DNA of 64,000 bases, taken from a virus. Its lineage: Duplodnaviria > Caudoviricetes. Below, one piece after another: positions 16,895-22,659 of the stretch. Where the stretch lies: IMG/VR virus record IMGVR_UViG_3300011989_000257, positions 160,001-224,000 of that record; one strand, given 5' to 3'. The translations under genes were made by a program, and so were the position numbers. Every line of letters begins with the position of its first letter. The stretch's first letter is position 1. A model generated the notes under the pieces. That model saw only the letters and a program-made list of their open reading frames with translations. It had not been told where the DNA came from and did no database searches.

Positions 16895-17057
16895 ATTGCA
16901 AAGATATAAATAAATATTGACAATTCCAAATTTTTAAGAGTTTTTTTAATCTTCTTCCAACTCTTTCTTCCATTTTGTGTAAGTTGGGTCACTTATAATA
17001 TCCCATGCCATAACACCTATGCAGAATAACAGAAATAGTCCAAACATAATTCAATCT

Positions 17058-17303
17058 TTAATAATTATAAACAAGTGAATTGCAAGCCTCTTTTACCGCA
17101 TTGATACGTGCAGTTGTTGAAGCGTTTGTGTAACCACAATTATCAAAGGTTGCGCTCTTATTGGAATGGTCAACCCTTGCAATCTGATTGCCGTGATACC
17201 AAACCTTTGTAATGTTGTTTTCAGTTTTAACAACAACGTTGCTGCCACTCCAATTGGTCTTGCGAGTAACCGCATCACAGATTCTTTCTTGATATTCTCT
17301 CAT
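17058..17303 (-). CDS. Small phage protein
   Basis: HGNQIA...TTARINA; after promoter 17331. Confidence 0.75.
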   Translation of the reverse strand: MREYQERICDAVTRKTNWSGSNVVVKTENNITKVWYHGNQIARVDHSNKSATFDNCGYTNASTTARINAVKEACNSLVYNY

Positions 17304-17375
17304 AATCCTATTATTTAAATTGTTTGATGGTGCAAAGATACGAAATTATTTTCACACCACCAAACTTTTTAGAGA

Positions 17376-18173
17376 TTATTTTTCGATTTTTTCGATTGTT
17401 CCCTTGTCACCATTGATAATATATCCAATTTCCTTTGCGATTGTTGGGAAGAACACATCATCAAAGTATGTGCTTCCGTCACCCTCTGCATAGAGATTTA
17501 CATCAAATTGATATGCTAACGGATAGAGCATTACACGATTGAAAATCTCACCCCAATAGGCGATAATGATACCCTTGATGTCCTTTTTGGCAACAATGTC
17601 ACCATCATTAAGGTTATACCATTGGATAAAGCGAGAACCCAAAGCCTTAACCTTTGCCCAATCGCTTGGTTTCATGCTACCTCTCAACACTCTCACATCA
17701 TCATCATTGGTGAGGTCATAGATGTATGAATCATCACCATATAAGGAACTTTCCTCAATAAATGCGTTCCACAACTGGACAAGCACTTCATCAGTGAGTT
17801 TAATGGTAGCAATGAGGGTATTTTTCTCAACTCCCTTATAGGTATTGACAACCCACTCATTGATAAACTTCTGTTTGTCATAGCCATTCTTTGCCACAAA
17901 CTCCCTAACATTCTCAATGGTTGGTGTTCCCTCTCCCCAATTAATCTTCATGAGGTCATTGTAGAACTCTGTGGTTGGGTCACGGAAGATACCCTCTTTC
18001 TCTGTATAGTCTTTCATGAAATCATCAACGTTCATGCCATACTTCTGATTGATGTATTCAGAAATCTTATCGTCAGAGGGATATTCCAAACCCTTTTTGC
18101 GGCAAATATCACGAATTACCTTGCGGAAACTGATTACCTTATTCGCTTTCTCAACTAAGTTTAATTCTGCCAT
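17376..18173 (-). CDS. Hypothetical protein (start corrected to MAELNL)
   Basis: After promoter 18212. Confidence 0.8.
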   Translation of the reverse strand: MAELNLVEKANKVISFRKVIRDICRKKGLEYPSDDKISEYINQKYGMNVDDFMKDYTEKEGIFRDPTTEFYNDLMKINWGEGTPTIENVREFVAKNGYDKQKFINEWVVNTYKGVEKNTLIATIKLTDEVLVQLWNAFIEESSLYGDDSYIYDLTNDDDVRVLRGSMKPSDWAKVKALGSRFIQWYNLNDGDIVAKKDIKGIIIAYWGEIFNRVMLYPLAYQFDVNLYAEGDGSTYFDDVFFPTIAKEIGYIINGDKGTIEKIEK

Positions 18174-18274
18174 AACTTTTAATCTCCTATTACTTTTAAA
18201 TTGTTTGATGATGCAAAGATACGAAATTATTTTCACATCACCAAACTTTTTAACTTTTTTTAGCCTAACTCATT

Positions 18275-18842
18275 TCAGTTGTTACAAAGAAACTCATAAA
18301 TTTTGTCACAAATTTCTTCGTCTAAATCGTCTATATCCAAGTCAGCGACATACGATATGCCATTATTCTTGTATGAGAACTTCAAACCACAATCATCAAG
18401 AATGGTATCAACTTCTTTATCATCAATGATAATAGGCTTGCCATCAGTCAAAGCCATTAACTCATTGTGCTCAAGTTCACCATAGCCTACTACTGCTTTA
18501 TAAAACTTTCTCTGTGTCATAGGTTTAATCTCTATAAATTGCTACTTCACCAAGTTGTTGTTTTAAATCTCCAAAGCCATCAGTCATGGTGTAAAGGTCT
18601 GCACCATCAGCAATGGCTTTCTGCAAGAAATGAGCATATTCCTCATTGCCCTCACTAAATGCGTCAGCAATCCATACATTTGCCATTTCAGTATCAACCT
18701 CTTCAAAGTCGTACTGCATAAGCCAAAATGGGTCATACTCAACCATTTCTACTGCAATGTCATGCTGCTCTTTTGTCAAACCACAAGATACTACCTCGCA
18801 GTTGTCTAACTTTGTTCTCTGAACTCCTAAAATTGTACTCAT
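18275..18842 (-). CDS. Two acidic hypothetical proteins (18525-18842, 18275-18520)
   Basis: After promoter 18872. Confidence 0.75.
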
Positions 18843-18927
18843 AATCTTTAATGTTTTATTTGTTTTGACAATGCAAAGATACGAAATTTATCCCAATTGA
18901 CCAAATTAAAAGTGTTAAAAAACGCAA

Positions 18928-18957
18928 ATGGGAACTTATCTCACGACAAGTCCCCAT
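18928..18957 (-). terminator. Terminator (GTGA loop) ending the long non-coding transcript
   Basis: ATGGGGACTTGTC-GTGA-GATAAGTTCCCAT-TTGCGTTTTT. Confidence 0.75.
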
Positions 18958-19036
18958 CCAAACAACTAAAAACCTAACAATCTTAAATTATGGAAAACAA
19001 AGAGCGTCTAAACAACGCAAATCGAGAATTTTTGTA

Positions 19037-20032
19037 CCCTATAAAGTGATGAAACTCTCAACTACAAAACGACACGACCGATGGTTAAGTAGCGTATGGC
19101 AACCAAAAAGCAGAATATACGTAATCATCCACTTTCCAATTCCATCATAGGGCATTTAAAAATGTGAGGTGGAACACGTCCGAAATTACATGATGGCAAA
19201 GGCAAGTGCAACTTATTGCATCGCAGTTCGGCATCTCCCATTTGGGGCGCATCGAATCCACCTCACTTGTTTCTCACACCTTTAGTAGCATACTATGACA
19301 ACACCGCAAACGATTAACGTCATAGTCGCTGTGAGTAGGGTTGATTTCACAACTTAATTTGCAGTAATTTAGGGCATGGCAAGCGCATATACTCGGCTAA
19401 ATTGGGTTCGCTCGCCTAACATCGCCCCTCTCTATTAAAAATGGACACCCTATAACTAACACTCCGCATACTTGGTAGTAGAATTGTGCGCACATTACTC
19501 CTACGCAGACATTGTTTCAACTTCGGTATGTCCTAATCGCCCTTGGTAAGTGGTTTAATGGGCCATTCGGCATCGCTCTTGCTGACCTCCGTAGAGGTGG
19601 CTAAGCGTAATGTGTCTCGGAAATGGCGGCTCTTTGGATATTGGTCGCTCATTGACACTTAATTGGCTCGGACGGAACTATTTATGTTCCAAATTCACTT
19701 AACTCCACGGCTTAAGTTCATTCATACGACGGCATTGTAACGTTACACGAACTTTACCCTATCTCCGCCTAATTGGGGTTTTGTAATTATGGTTAAATTT
19801 ACTTTTTATCAGTGTTATATATATATATCATTCCTTAGTTGGGTCGGTCTCTAATCATACTCTATGTGTGCGAGCATAGGGGCAATCTCGCTTTATATGT
19901 TCTCCCCTTAAAATTTATAATCGGCGCAGTAATCTAAAAAAATTATTTTCCTAAACTTAATACCCTTATGAGGGCGGAGGTCTTTCCATTATCTTTCCTC
20001 TTTAGTAAACTTGGGTGCTTACCCCAACTAAG
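19037..20032 (-). ncRNA. ~1-kb structured non-coding transcript (array of RNA domains)
   Basis: Promoter 20043 to terminator 18928 with no ORF >=60 aa; closing stems at 19834-20032 (10 bp), ~19447-19795, 19371-19429, 19273-19335, 19164-19266 (10 bp), 19037-19152. Confidence 0.7.
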
Positions 20033-20117
20033 CGTTTTGTAATGCAAAGGTACGAAATTTTTTTGAACTGACCAAACTTTTTCGGTGTTTTAACTTCGTT
20101 TAACCTTTGAGAAAATT

Positions 20118-20200
20118 AGGTAGGGTTTCCCCAATCTTGGTACTGACACCGCCACTATCACGAGTTGCTGACCATTTGTTGGCTTGTTTTATCCCTACCT
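20118..20200 (-). ncRNA. Candidate structured ncRNA, family A copy 2
   Basis: AGGTAGGG/CCCTACCT stem; homologous to 790-896(+). Confidence 0.7.
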
Positions 20201-20204
20201 AAGA

Positions 20205-20274
20205 AACGGCATCGAGGGCAAGGTGGTAAGCGATTTGCGCTGTATATATGCACTACCCCCAATCTTAAGCCGTT
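20205..20274 (-). ncRNA. Candidate structured RNA unit
   Basis: AACGGC/GCCGTT closing stem; also contains AAGATTGGGG. Confidence 0.4.
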
Positions 20275-20449
20275 ATTTCAGTTGCTTAACTCGATAGAGT
20301 TGGGTCTCTTTCATGATAGGCTCATTTGTCTTTGGGTCTTTCATAATCTGCCCATTCTCGTCAAGCGCATAATCTTTGCGTACCTTTGATGGCATTGCCA
20401 CCACTCTGATGTTCTTTGTAACTCGATTGAGTTTCTTCTGTCCACTCAT
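20273..20449 (-). CDS. 58-aa basic protein (not in track)
   Basis: MSGQKKLNRVTKNIRVVAMPSKVRKDYALDENGQIMKDPKTNEPIMKETQLYRVKQLK; after promoter 20497. Confidence 0.7.
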   Translation of the reverse strand: MSGQKKLNRVTKNIRVVAMPSKVRKDYALDENGQIMKDPKTNEPIMKETQLYRVKQLK

Positions 20450-20554
20450 TTTTGTTTTACCTTTTTTTAATTAATTACTTTGTTATTGTTTCACGATGCA
20501 AAGATACGAAATCTTTTTGGAATAACCAAATTTATTTTGAGAAATTTTCAATCA

Positions 20555-20761
20555 TTAACATTCGTTAGCAAGAAAGTCAGCCACTTCAACGGTTTCCTTG
20601 ATGTCAGATTCCAATTTATCATCGTCAATGTCACCATCATAGCGATAGTTATCAAGGGTCTTACCATATAATTCGCAAACAAACTCGCCATCTTCTGTCA
20701 CATCAAGGCCAGTAAGGGTTTCTCTTACAATGTAGCCTAACTCTGTTTCGTATACGCCCAT
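20555..20761 (-). CDS. Small acidic protein
   Basis: ORF. Confidence 0.7.
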   Translation of the reverse strand: MGVYETELGYIVRETLTGLDVTEDGEFVCELYGKTLDNYRYDGDIDDDKLESDIKETVEVADFLANEC

Positions 20762-20989
20762 AACTACTTCACCTCTTCTTTCTTCTGCCCAAAGTGAGTG
20801 ACGATGTGCGGAATTGCAACCAAGACACCAATCACAACCACAAGGGAAACAATCTGTAATACTGAAATATCCATAACTCTTATTTATTTGTTAATGCAAA
20901 GATACGAAATTATTTTGAATTGACCAAGAAAAATCCCATTTTTTTTAGAAAAGTTGGTGGGGATTATTTCACCCCACCTAACCTTTGTC

Positions 20990-21550
20990 TTACTCGGCAG
21001 CAGCCATAGCCATAGCCATTTCCTCTGTCTTTGCAGTCTCTTCCACCTTTTTCGCAATGCCAAGTGTCTCAACTGACATCTTAGCGTTCTTCACGTTAAT
21101 CTTTGGATTGGGTTCACTCTTTGCAAGTGCTTCCTTGAAATCCTTTGTCTTTGTGGAATACTTGTCATAGAAACGACACAGAGCATGAGCCACGTTGGGG
21201 TTCTTGAACAACTTCTCGTTCTTGTGGTGCTTTGCGAACATTTCAAGCCACTTGAAAATGGTCTCGGCCTTTTTCTCGTCAATCTTATCGTAGCCGCCAA
21301 GGAACGTGCATAGACGATGTGCGTTCTTACCTACTGCGAAATACACAAGGTATGTGATAGGGTACTTGTCATGTGCGTTTGACAACTCTGTGAGTTTCTT
21401 GCAGATGTCGATGTGCAGCGCACGTTTCTCCTTATTCTGCGGCAGTGTAAACCAATTTGGCATACCTACACCCTTACCGCTACCACTCTCTGCGATTGCA
21501 CGTACACGTGAGTCGATTGTCACTTTCTTTGTCTTTGTCTCTTTTGCCAT
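20990..21550 (-). CDS. Basic hypothetical protein
   Basis: ORF after promoter 21606. Confidence 0.8.
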   Translation of the reverse strand: MAKETKTKKVTIDSRVRAIAESGSGKGVGMPNWFTLPQNKEKRALHIDICKKLTELSNAHDKYPITYLVYFAVGKNAHRLCTFLGGYDKIDEKKAETIFKWLEMFAKHHKNEKLFKNPNVAHALCRFYDKYSTKTKDFKEALAKSEPNPKINVKNAKMSVETLGIAKKVEETAKTEEMAMAMAAAE

Positions 21551-21653
21551 AGTTTTAATCTCCTATTCTTTTAATTAATAATGTTATTTATTTCTTGTTT
21601 CGTGATGCAAAGATACGAAATTATTTTGAATCTACCAAATTTTATCTGGTATT

Positions 21654-22659
21654 TTAACCCATTTTAACAATTTCCTTTTCTTCAATCTCAATTCTTTCGG
21701 AATAATCGTCATAAAGACAATCAATATAAAATGATGTGTCGCTGCGTTCCAATGTGTAGTCACAATCTGCATCATCATCGTTTTGGTCTTTCTCTATCTC
21801 GTCAAGGTCAAGACCCTCATACTTACCATCTGAAAGCAAGGTGTGAACTTCATCGTCCATAACCTTTTTTGCAGTCTCAAAATCAGCACAAGGTGTAACA
21901 TTCACAAGGATTTCTCCATCACAATTACTTGTCTGAATTACATTAAAAATCTTTTCCATAATCTTATTGTTTAATTGTGTAATAACTTGTAAAGTCATTC
22001 ATCTTATAGATGATATCTGCATCGTCACCATCTTGGAAATAGCCATTTTCAAGCCATTCAGATAGCCAAAGGTTCTCGACTTCATTGTTCTCATTGAATT
22101 TTACCCACAATTTGTAAACCTTTTCTTCCACACTGAAGAAAGCGAGGAAACCGCCATCATCCTCATGGTCAAAATAGTAACGATTAACCTTTATTTCAAA
22201 GACTTCCTTTGCGTTTATCTTGTTGCCATTCAAATCCTTGTAAGATTTATCTATTGCGATAGTTGTCACTATTCCAAATGGAGCAATGCAATTTTCATCA
22301 CGTTTGTCAAACTCGCATAAACGGGTATCTTCAACCACTTTCTTTGTGACTACATTCCCATAATAATGGGTATTTGCATTATCGAAACGAGTTATTTCAA
22401 CTCTTAACTTTGATTCAATCATAGTTTAAAAACCAAATGAGAATACATAATAGTCATCTAAATCTACAAAAGGCATTTCGGCTTCAATAGCTTCCTCTGC
22501 ACTTGCATAAGAGTTTGCATCAATCTTAACGATTGTGTAGTTATCATCGTAGTCCTCTTCGGCTACCCATTCCTCTAAATCCTTTTCGGTGAGGTTTTCT
22601 ACTTGCTCCTTGCGATAATGTTGCTTATCGAGTAGGAATACTTTTTTGTCTCTTTCCAT
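21654..22659 (-). CDS. Three acidic hypothetical proteins (22426-22659, 21964-22422, 21654-21959)
   Basis: Operon after promoter 22679; starts corrected. Confidence 0.75.

Follow-up and report, generated by a model that had tools for sequence, protein, structure and literature searches.

The window analysed here is a stretch of 64,000 nucleotides (nt) from a rumen phage, bases 160001-224000 of the 412,514-bp virus record IMGVR_UViG_3300011989_000257. On its minus strand, between a promoter at 20076 and a terminator ending at 18925, lies a unit that is probably a promoter-to-terminator operon of separately folded RNA cassettes, the functions of which we infer. In about 70 related loci the 5' leader and the 3' end of the unit are constant and the middle varies, and the constant ends, taken together with the exchange, deletion or addition of whole modules between them, point to a polycistronic cassette array and not to one RNA. 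The original prediction for this DNA, made by a model from the sequence letters, had proposed either one new large non-coding RNA or a polycistronic RNA array. Module exchange and differences in RNA depth strongly support the array, and the single RNA survives only as one module of ~365 nt, designated B. The layout proposed at that time, a ~200-nt leader followed by a ~350-nt domain, four smaller closed domains and a terminator, was also recovered in rough outline.

Relatives and architecture of the unit

Relatives were collected with the downstream protein as query, which gave five related viral loci, and with exact motifs of the last module (module E) and of the leader, which gave nine further viral stretches and 102 metagenome stretches, almost all of them from rumen or gut. 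After filtering and de-duplication, 71 distinct oriented units were retained. Most loci were gathered with a 20-mer of module E itself, the exceptions being L013 and the loci reached through a protein. A DNA search of the phage collection returned just one 50-nt chance match.

A common order emerged from the reference cassette library: the leader, an optional short hairpin, a large module (Bw, B2, B3 or B4) or none, small modules (of the types M1, M3, C1, C2 or C2b), a slot holding one or two tRNAs or tRNA-shaped elements, and the constant module E. The distance from the first of two micro-open reading frames (micro-ORFs) in the leader to module E ranged from 281 to 1052 nt in 47 units. Mosaicism is already evident in the sister phage L009, which has a flanking protein 92% identical to that of the window. 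Identity to the window is 83% in its promoter and first 70 nt, 94% in the segment 19356-19156 and 79% in the last 180 nt, while other sequence stands in place of module B, the ~350-nt core. Among viral contigs, the module C pattern was found in the sister phage only.

The borders of the unit are set by two copies of one promoter repeat:

20045..20076, minus strand: promoter P1, of the Bacteroidota type (-33 element TTTG at 20076-20073, -7 element TAccTTTG at 20052-20045)
18862..18905, minus strand: promoter P2 of the next gene (ATG at 18842), a copy of the promoter repeat that marks the end of the unit

A promoter had been predicted at 20043-20076, and P1 indeed belongs to a ~45-nt repeat, ending TTTG...TAyCTTTG, of which more than 40 copies lie ahead of genes in the window. 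Within the unit P1 and P2 are the only copies; P1 is also kept in relatives, and transcription from it would start near 20038. The GTGA-loop terminator was likewise confirmed, as a 16-bp hairpin at 18960-18925 followed by a T-run and with compensatory changes at 11 pairs (41 distinct sequences). As had been claimed, no ORF of at least 60 amino acids (aa) is present on either strand within 18860-20160. Two ORFs flank the gap, one of 58 codons with its stop at 20273 and one of 105 codons with its ATG at 18842, and the sole frame of at least 60 aa between these two positions (74 aa, 20165-20389, on the opposite strand) enters the upstream gene and falls outside the interval of the unit. A gene read under an alternative genetic code was considered and rejected, as TAG=Q, table 4 (TGA as sense) and TAA=Q opened no credible ORF.

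The comparison with known RNA families was made at several thresholds. At the gathering score of Rfam 15, the only match in the whole window was a tRNA-Leu located elsewhere. At E<=10 over 18700-20400 a weak match to FopS, discussed below, was the only noteworthy one in the unit, and the models of GOLLD, ROOL, RNase P RNA and tmRNA, the families named for checking in the original prediction, remained unmatched, as did the intron models. The ROOL (RF03087) and GOLLD (RF01998) models had no match in seven related loci at E<=1. RNase P RNA, tmRNA, SRP RNA, a group I or group II intron remnant and an IscB/TnpB-type guide RNA were rejected as candidates, there being neither a model match nor an adjoining nuclease gene. 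When the neighbouring proteins were compared with PHROGs and Pfam, no informative family and no RNA-binding or nuclease partner was found.

Module B and its 3' rod

19431..19795, minus strand: module B, an ornate RNA of ~365 nt (5' border uncertain by ~30 nt; 3' end formed by a stem and a U-run)
19436..19535, minus strand: 3' rod of module B, four stacked helices, topped by an apical loop of 15 nt and interrupted by conserved internal loops, AAGUUG and GUUAGUUAUA
19486..19493, minus strand: palindrome GUGCGCAC (8 nt) in the apical loop of the rod, a candidate symmetric kissing-loop contact

Module B has eight metagenomic homologues that are 71-80% identical. RNAalifold returned 91 pairs on their alignment; a cleaned structure of 85 pairs was 98.1% paired and held 11 compensatory pairs, as against 0-3 when partners were slid by 1-3 columns. 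The ACCTC-TACG-GAGGT hairpin that had been noticed in the window is part of this consensus fold. The long-range pairs suggested for the same domain fared less well, and covariation speaks against GACAT/ATGTC and CACATTAC/GTAATGTG. In place of GACAT/ATGTC, GGACAU pairs with GUGUCC at the 3' end of the domain, with compensatory changes at 8/8 pairs. For CACATTAC/GTAATGTG, the 3' half is taken up by a hairpin, in its covarying stem and conserved loop, and the pairing would carry an A-C mismatch in most relatives. GGCGG/CCGCC has no covariation support; CCGCC is part of another conserved helix, and a local pairing of GGYGG with CCRYC, in which C-G changes to U-A, looks possible, though RNAalifold did not predict it.

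The large modules of the B2, B3, B4 and L026 types share sequence islands and a common 3' domain with module B, and a hairpin shared among the B types covaries (GUGUC/GACAC versus GUGCC/GGCAC). Judged from these alignments, module B is a member of an RNA superfamily with a variable 5' part and a conserved 3' rod of ~95 nt. The rod is followed by a U-run and occurs as a single copy in this genome. Separate minimum free energy (MFE) folds of 29 variants of the rod domain all gave the same nested rod. A covariance model, R1, was built from eight close sequences and searched in 60 loci, where it recovered 47 rods, 34 of them distinct, spanning the W, B2, B3, B4 and L026 types. Among these 34 sequences changes were seen on both sides in 24/24 pairs. 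In all, 90.8% of cells were paired compared with 32-43% when slid, and the covariation score was 0.618 compared with 0.06-0.12; these figures lean toward the model, to which the alignment was fitted, though the margin is large. MAFFT followed by RNAalifold on the mixed-type alignment had found the apical hairpin only and was out of structural register, a difficulty that the covariance model solved.

All rods that can be aligned across the loop have the palindrome GUGCGCAC unaltered but for L015, which keeps the inner UGCGCA. A literature search for the palindrome gave nothing relevant. A pattern search with the apical loop gave three more fragments of the same phage group and five contigs of another kind, in which the loop stands on an unrelated 7-bp stem in a ~95-nt rod that forms the giant variable arm of a tRNA-shaped element. 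Since the loop-bearing rod is found in the tRNA islands of other phages, it appears to be a portable module of such islands. In the example L183:2694-2876 (also L186, L188, L202 and L203), which belongs to a different phage group, the tRNA-shaped element is unannotated and flanked by tRNA-Phe and tRNA-Arg. Its variable arm, of ~110 nt, is a rod that carries at its tip the AACGUGCGCACAAUUCU loop of module B, and neither ARAGORN nor Rfam calls the element.

ROOL and GOLLD RNAs are located near phage tRNA islands and form symmetric intermolecular palindromic kissing loops (doi 10.1101/2024.12.08.627333). Both families assemble as RNA-only homomultimers through kissing loops and A-minor contacts. 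On the best-supported reading of the unit, as an operon, module B is a large structured RNA whose family is absent from Rfam and which is related to ROOL and GOLLD in kind and not in sequence. The resemblance drawn in the original prediction stood in that sense, as a phage RNA beside tRNA-type genes, and failed for family membership. Like ROOL and GOLLD, module B is a large, multi-helix, phage-encoded RNA adjoining tRNA-type genes (ROOL is also known from rumen); as in GOLLD, its 3' region is conserved and its 5' region variable. It shares with both a conserved palindromic hairpin loop and the want of an evident protein partner, the multimer being here a candidate only. Unlike them, it measures 250-370 nt as against ~580 or more than 800, is one cassette in a shuffled operon and has no covariance-model match.

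Accumulation of B-type RNA

Part of the stretch is contained in six RNA runs. Four metatranscriptomes, each from a different study (one sheep, one bovine, two with no label beyond gut), were mapped on 17000-22000; contigs were accepted at an identity of at least 85%, some of them derive from relatives, and the runs were chosen for containing the stretch. B-type contigs were present in all four. In the two with the best cover, X15 and X18 (the latter a size-fractionated library), the summed contig word depth over 19338-19838 was 264-514 and 299-941 respectively, and that of the flanking genes and other modules was 1-20. A 233-nt contig of X15 on 19562-19766 had a depth of 479, contigs on the neighbouring coding regions having 3-10, and between modules of one unit contig depth varied 10-100-fold. 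There is good evidence that B-type RNA accumulates, depth being a crude measure and not a quantification.

Contigs break at 19428, the border of B and M1, in two studies. One contig, of 412 nt, spans the leader and the 5' part of B and another, of 576 nt, runs from B into C1 over a replaced M1, which is consistent with co-transcription. RNA contigs were low or absent on modules C1 to E and on micro-ORF 2, where contigs cannot show absence, and RNAs shorter than 100 nt assemble poorly.

Module E and its predicted host target

18925..19030, minus strand: module E, a 3' module resembling a small RNA (hairpin 19018-19004, seed 19004-18966, terminator 18960-18925)

Module E is conserved in about 70 loci. 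In the consensus fold most of the ~40-nt seed (19004-18966) is unpaired, save for a short predicted hairpin of six pairs. The FopS model (RF04319) scored 18.4 bits on it (E = 8.2, 18913-19000), short of the gathering score of 56. The FopS and GibS small RNAs of Bacteroides have a single-stranded seed and a terminator and pair at the start codons of their targets, and a FopS-like sequence was reported in a Bacteroides phage (PMC11697453). Like FopS, module E has a single-stranded seed followed by a terminator, and a predicted pairing that extends across the start codon of a target. Unlike FopS, which has a sigma-ABfr promoter, it is without its own promoter directly upstream and is preceded by a tRNA-shaped element. 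The gene that it is predicted to target is not susC but a SPFH/Band-7 gene of Prevotella, and its complementary stretch, at 20-38 nt, greatly exceeds that of FopS.

The reverse complement of the seed reads as a 5' untranslated region (UTR) and then as ATG GAA AAC AAA GAG. When 185,579 species genomes were scanned with the 20-mer complementary to the seed, 28 loci were found. In 11 of these loci the match, at 20/20, is to the start of one and the same orthologous gene of Prevotella/Prevotellaceae, with a Bacteroidota -7 box upstream, and the other 17 are scattered as chance background. The product is a membrane protein of 314 aa of the SPFH/Band_7 family (Pfam E=2.5e-20) with weak similarity to HflC. 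Orthologues were present in 24/61 sampled Prevotella genomes, with two more that were weaker or partial, and mostly begin MENKEF. By inspection, the U and G residues of E would tolerate most synonymous A/G and C/U variants at this site through wobble pairing.

In L157 the match runs ungapped through the 5' UTR, for a total of 31/38. The UTR half, slid on its own and independent of the 20-mer that had found the gene, had its single best match (18/23) among 189,666 positions of 25 SPFH loci exactly in register before the start codon. Predicted duplex energies of E with the SPFH gene were -34 and -43 kcal/mol. In L013, a distant relative reached through a protein and not through the motif, both halves of the seed are kept. 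The phage's own genome held no comparable target, its best match having at least 4 mismatches, and a genus-wide scan with the 20-mer at 3 mismatches gave mostly noise. PADLOC assigned the SPFH protein to no defence family. On these matches we lean, somewhat beyond an even chance, toward E targeting this SPFH gene family.

Beside the predicted -7 box and transcription start of the SPFH gene, ~30-60 nt upstream of its start codon, L153 and L157 carry a palindrome, TGATATCA, which suggests an operator for a regulator.

Module D and other tRNA-shaped elements

19035..19153, minus strand: module D, a tRNA-shaped element predicted to fold as a four-way junction, its 7-bp acceptor-like stem (GCCCUAU/AUAGGGU + A) joined by a T-like arm and two oversized arms

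Module E is preceded by module D, which has no decoding anticodon loop. Nine MFE folds, of module D and of eight variants, gave the same junction, with the T-like arm abutting the acceptor strand, as an energy prediction only. Relatives have Rfam tRNA matches of 35-76 bits in their arrays, in the slot before E where positions were checked. Among them are good tRNAs, with a Lys-UUU-like gene in L043, L045, L104 and L119. The elements of other relatives have anticodon loops of 5, 8 or ~15 nt and were rejected by ARAGORN or called with a four-base anticodon; on 11 units ARAGORN made one odd call only, with a 4-base anticodon. A T-arm and acceptor strand was located 3-15 nt upstream of E in 63 listed units, 33 of them scored by a script that was too strict and the rest by eye, and in every unit read a tRNA or tRNA-shaped element stands immediately before E. 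A group of tRNA-like genes (L012:3759-3832, L016:547-620, L020:3063-3136 and others) has good D and T arms and Rfam scores of 40-43 bits. Their anticodon loop, UGCCAACA, is 8 nt long and was read by ARAGORN as the four-base anticodon ccaa; the acceptor stem has two mismatches at its base.

Minihelices of the acceptor and T arms are substrates of RNase P and RNase Z, and it is on this ground that the elements can be interpreted as processing marks that would free their neighbours and make the 5' end of E. Maturation linked to a tRNA has been described for the tRNA-miRNA units of murine gammaherpesvirus 68 (PMC4337559) and for MALAT1-mascRNA (PMC8457004). As in these two systems and in 3'ETS-leuZ of E. 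coli, a tRNA fold adjoins another functional RNA, so that tRNA-processing enzymes could set the end of that RNA. The elements described here differ from all three in their non-decoding anticodon regions and in standing in a bacteriophage cassette array, and their cleavage is predicted.

The leader and its micro-ORFs

20011..20027, minus strand: 5' hairpin of the leader, TTGGGG/CCCAA; relatives carry alternative stems, such as GAGGGT/ACCCTC, in the same place
19966..19989, minus strand: micro-ORF 1, MERPPPS-stop, with a purine-rich leader upstream
19835..19858, minus strand: micro-ORF 2, MIRDRPN-stop, its frame kept across 3- and 6-nt indels

The unit had been described as non-coding, which holds for long frames and has to be qualified for the leader, where two conserved frames of 7-8 codons are found (19989-19966 and 19858-19835). 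Micro-ORF 1 reads ATG GAA MGA CCN CCG CCY with a stop after 0-1 codon, the product being MERPPP(x), in 47/47 units with the motif. Nucleotide changes in these units are limited to AGA/CGA, CCT/CCG and CCC/CCT, all synonymous, and the sequence immediately 5' of the ATG is freely variable yet purine-rich. The stop lies in the loop of a small covarying hairpin (stems CCCT/AGGG, GCCC/GGGC and GCC/GGC). Micro-ORF 2 follows the pattern M-(I, RQ, RT, RS, RV, RP or RNI)-RDRP-(x)-stop in 49 units, with the stop 0-3 codons after RDRP; between its ATG and the invariant RDRP codons lie 1, 2 or 3 codons, and the two are in frame in all cases.

A long-range helix that the original prediction had proposed, CTTAGTTGGG/CCCAACTAAG, has a 3' strand that overlaps the stop of micro-ORF 2. 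One compensatory change (window versus L102/L104) speaks for this helix, but it competes with a local 5' hairpin and is absent from most relatives; it could be an alternative pairing sensitive to translation. In L019 exactly the same 30 nt precede the ATG of both micro-ORFs, so both look like initiation regions; the two leaders of L019 may stem from a tandem duplication.

Consecutive prolines stall ribosomes unless EF-P assists, and the arrest end of TnaC is Arg-Pro next to the stop. By this analogy the micro-ORFs may be ribosome-pausing leaders, and we put the chances that they are translated at about even. Like TnaC, polyproline stalling and the attenuators of amino-acid operons, the leader has very short conserved 5' ORFs with Arg-Pro-Pro-Pro or Arg-Pro at the stop, and like leader-peptide systems it has both stops within RNA helices, the helix at micro-ORF 2 being only partly supported. 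Unlike leader-peptide attenuators, the frames have only 6-9 codons, the downstream products are RNAs and the codons do not match the tRNAs of the array. No terminator/antiterminator pair was identified in the leader.

Two further features lie near the micro-ORFs. Between them (19915-19868, minus strand), interleaved GGGG..GCGAG..CCCC..CUCGC segments could form an H-type pseudoknot, which had no covariation in only four homologues. After micro-ORF 2, the motif TATAACACTGAT (19815-19800) is conserved across units with differing downstream cassettes and may be a processing or recombination junction.

A working model and its alternatives

The features described above can be arranged in a model of how the operon would work. 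Transcription from one early-type promoter would give a precursor with independently folded cassettes arranged head to tail, ending at the intrinsic terminator. The micro-ORFs would be translated, and a pause at Arg-Pro-Pro-Pro or at Arg-Pro by the stop might shield or gate the long untranslated transcript. The ends formed by a stem and a U-run after B and C2 could act as leaky terminators or as stable 3' ends, with the consequence that B accumulates. Host RNase P and RNase Z would cut at the tRNA-shaped elements, by which the neighbouring RNAs would be freed and the 5' end of E made. E would block translation of the host SPFH/Band-7 mRNA by pairing with its 5' UTR and its first five codons, in the manner of FopS and GibS in Bacteroides, and B would be a stable RNA particle in which the palindromic apical loop probably gives a symmetric RNA-RNA contact.

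A bolder form of this model is possible, though we hold it as doubtful. It would make B a new class of abundant phage RNA that associates with itself through the palindromic loop into an RNA-only dimer or particle, a small counterpart of ROOL and GOLLD, and would make the operon an RNA weapon kit that is gated by polyproline, uses tRNA mimics as cut marks and ends in an antisense RNA against a host SPFH gene during infection of Prevotella.

Several observations weigh against parts of the model. The palindrome of the rod never covaries, and the kissing contact is a candidate only. Module D falls below every tRNA detector used (Rfam RF00005, 29 bits; ARAGORN, 7-nt anticodon loop). The two-part seed pattern was present in only 2/251 sampled Prevotella genomes and the true host was not found; the isolate labels of the 11 species with exact matches are for the most part human-associated or unspecified and do not include rumen. 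The invariance of E among loci collected with its own 20-mer is circular, L013 and the loci found through a protein being independent. In the leader, RDRP is invariant at the nucleotide level, which suits an RNA motif as well as a peptide, and the CCC-to-CCT change of micro-ORF 1 is also compensated in the hairpin and is no proof of translation. The RNA data, finally, are assembled contigs, which are blind to starts, ends and strand.

The unit might instead be a tRNA island that has gathered selfish or neutral mobile RNA cassettes without a function for the phage, the match of E being a captured scrap or chance. This would suit the gain and loss of cassettes between close relatives, the same-loop rod inside a tRNA-shaped element in the tRNA islands of unrelated phages, the degenerate look of the tRNA-like element of the window and the presence of the 20-mer in 17 unrelated genomes. 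We consider it unlikely, as purifying selection on the stems is strong and accompanied by compensatory changes, the loops hardly vary between diverged types, the RNA of B is very abundant, leader and E are kept in about 70 loci including a distant relative, and the second, independent half of the E seed matches the UTR of the same gene in register.

Much less probable is that the whole 1.1 kb acts as a single large ornate molecule of the GOLLD/ROOL kind, with the modules as its domains. In its favour, one promoter and one strong terminator frame the unit, the 5' and 3' regions are paired with each other in the full-length MFE fold, and two constant segments, AUGGAAA in micro-ORF 1 and UUUCCAU in module E, are complementary, over just 7-8 bp that offer no test by covariation. 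Against it, each module closes on itself, relatives drop or swap whole modules with the ends kept, leaving as little as 281 nt between leader and E, and RNA depth differs 10-100-fold between modules. A 5'-3' closing duplex for RNase III was rejected, only these 7-8 bp being available.

That the unit is a decayed coding sequence or an unconstrained spacer with stems by chance is scarcely credible, for although no Rfam family matched and the single-sequence fold of a related rod was no better than shuffles (z = 0.3), covariation is far above shuffled and slid controls, sequence is conserved across about 70 loci, RNA accumulates and no reading frame opens under any code tried.

Taken as an operon of cassettes, the unit is of interest in several respects. 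Enigmatic large RNAs are known in phage tRNA islands, and this unit is a simpler and more testable case, its fixed ends and exchangeable cassettes offering comparative material in about 70 natural variants. Module B, which appears highly expressed in rumen samples, has a compact rod supported by covariation and a palindromic loop, which makes RNA-RNA assembly testable. Module E gives a concrete target prediction, a SPFH/Band-7 protein with relatives in the HflK/C and flotillin group. Named host targets exist for very few small RNAs of phages, and we know of none in Bacteroidota. If true, the model would link phage-encoded small RNAs to the start-codon regulation of the FopS/GibS type in gut Bacteroidales, and would provide degenerate tRNA mimics as processing marks in a bacteriophage and a polyproline micro-gene as a control element of a non-coding transcript.

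Small modules and surroundings of the unit

Between B and D lie three small closed domains:

19371..19432, minus strand: module M1, a small closed hairpin domain GAGGGG...CCCT (14 pairs, 94% paired, 1 compensatory)
19270..19356, minus strand: module C1, a scaffold CUCACA/UGUGAG around a variable inserted hairpin (19 pairs, 4 compensatory)
19158..19266, minus strand: module C2, with the closing stem GUGAGGUGG/CCACCUCAC and a U-run after it (30 pairs, 3 compensatory)

M1 is an independent cassette in L019, L024, L031, L043, L045 and others. C1 is 94% identical to its counterpart in L009/L018, and its inner hairpin is replaced in L021, L031 and L048. The closing stem of C2 differs among relatives, for example GGGGAU/AUCCCC.

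The minus strand of the window is densely packed with small genes, and the helicase of the window is nearest to those of phages of Bacteroides thetaiotaomicron, at 42% identity. Downstream of the unit, a 286-aa ORF (17376-18236, minus strand) belongs to no family and has a sub-threshold match to astrovirus VPg (19.7 bits, cut-off 25) that is probably due to chance. Above the unit the ORF-free gap extends upstream of P1 (20105-20235, minus strand), and a 31-nt stretch in this region, 20142-20112, matches the window at 874-901. An RNA contig on 19898-20142 crosses P1, suggesting that upstream transcripts may read into the unit.

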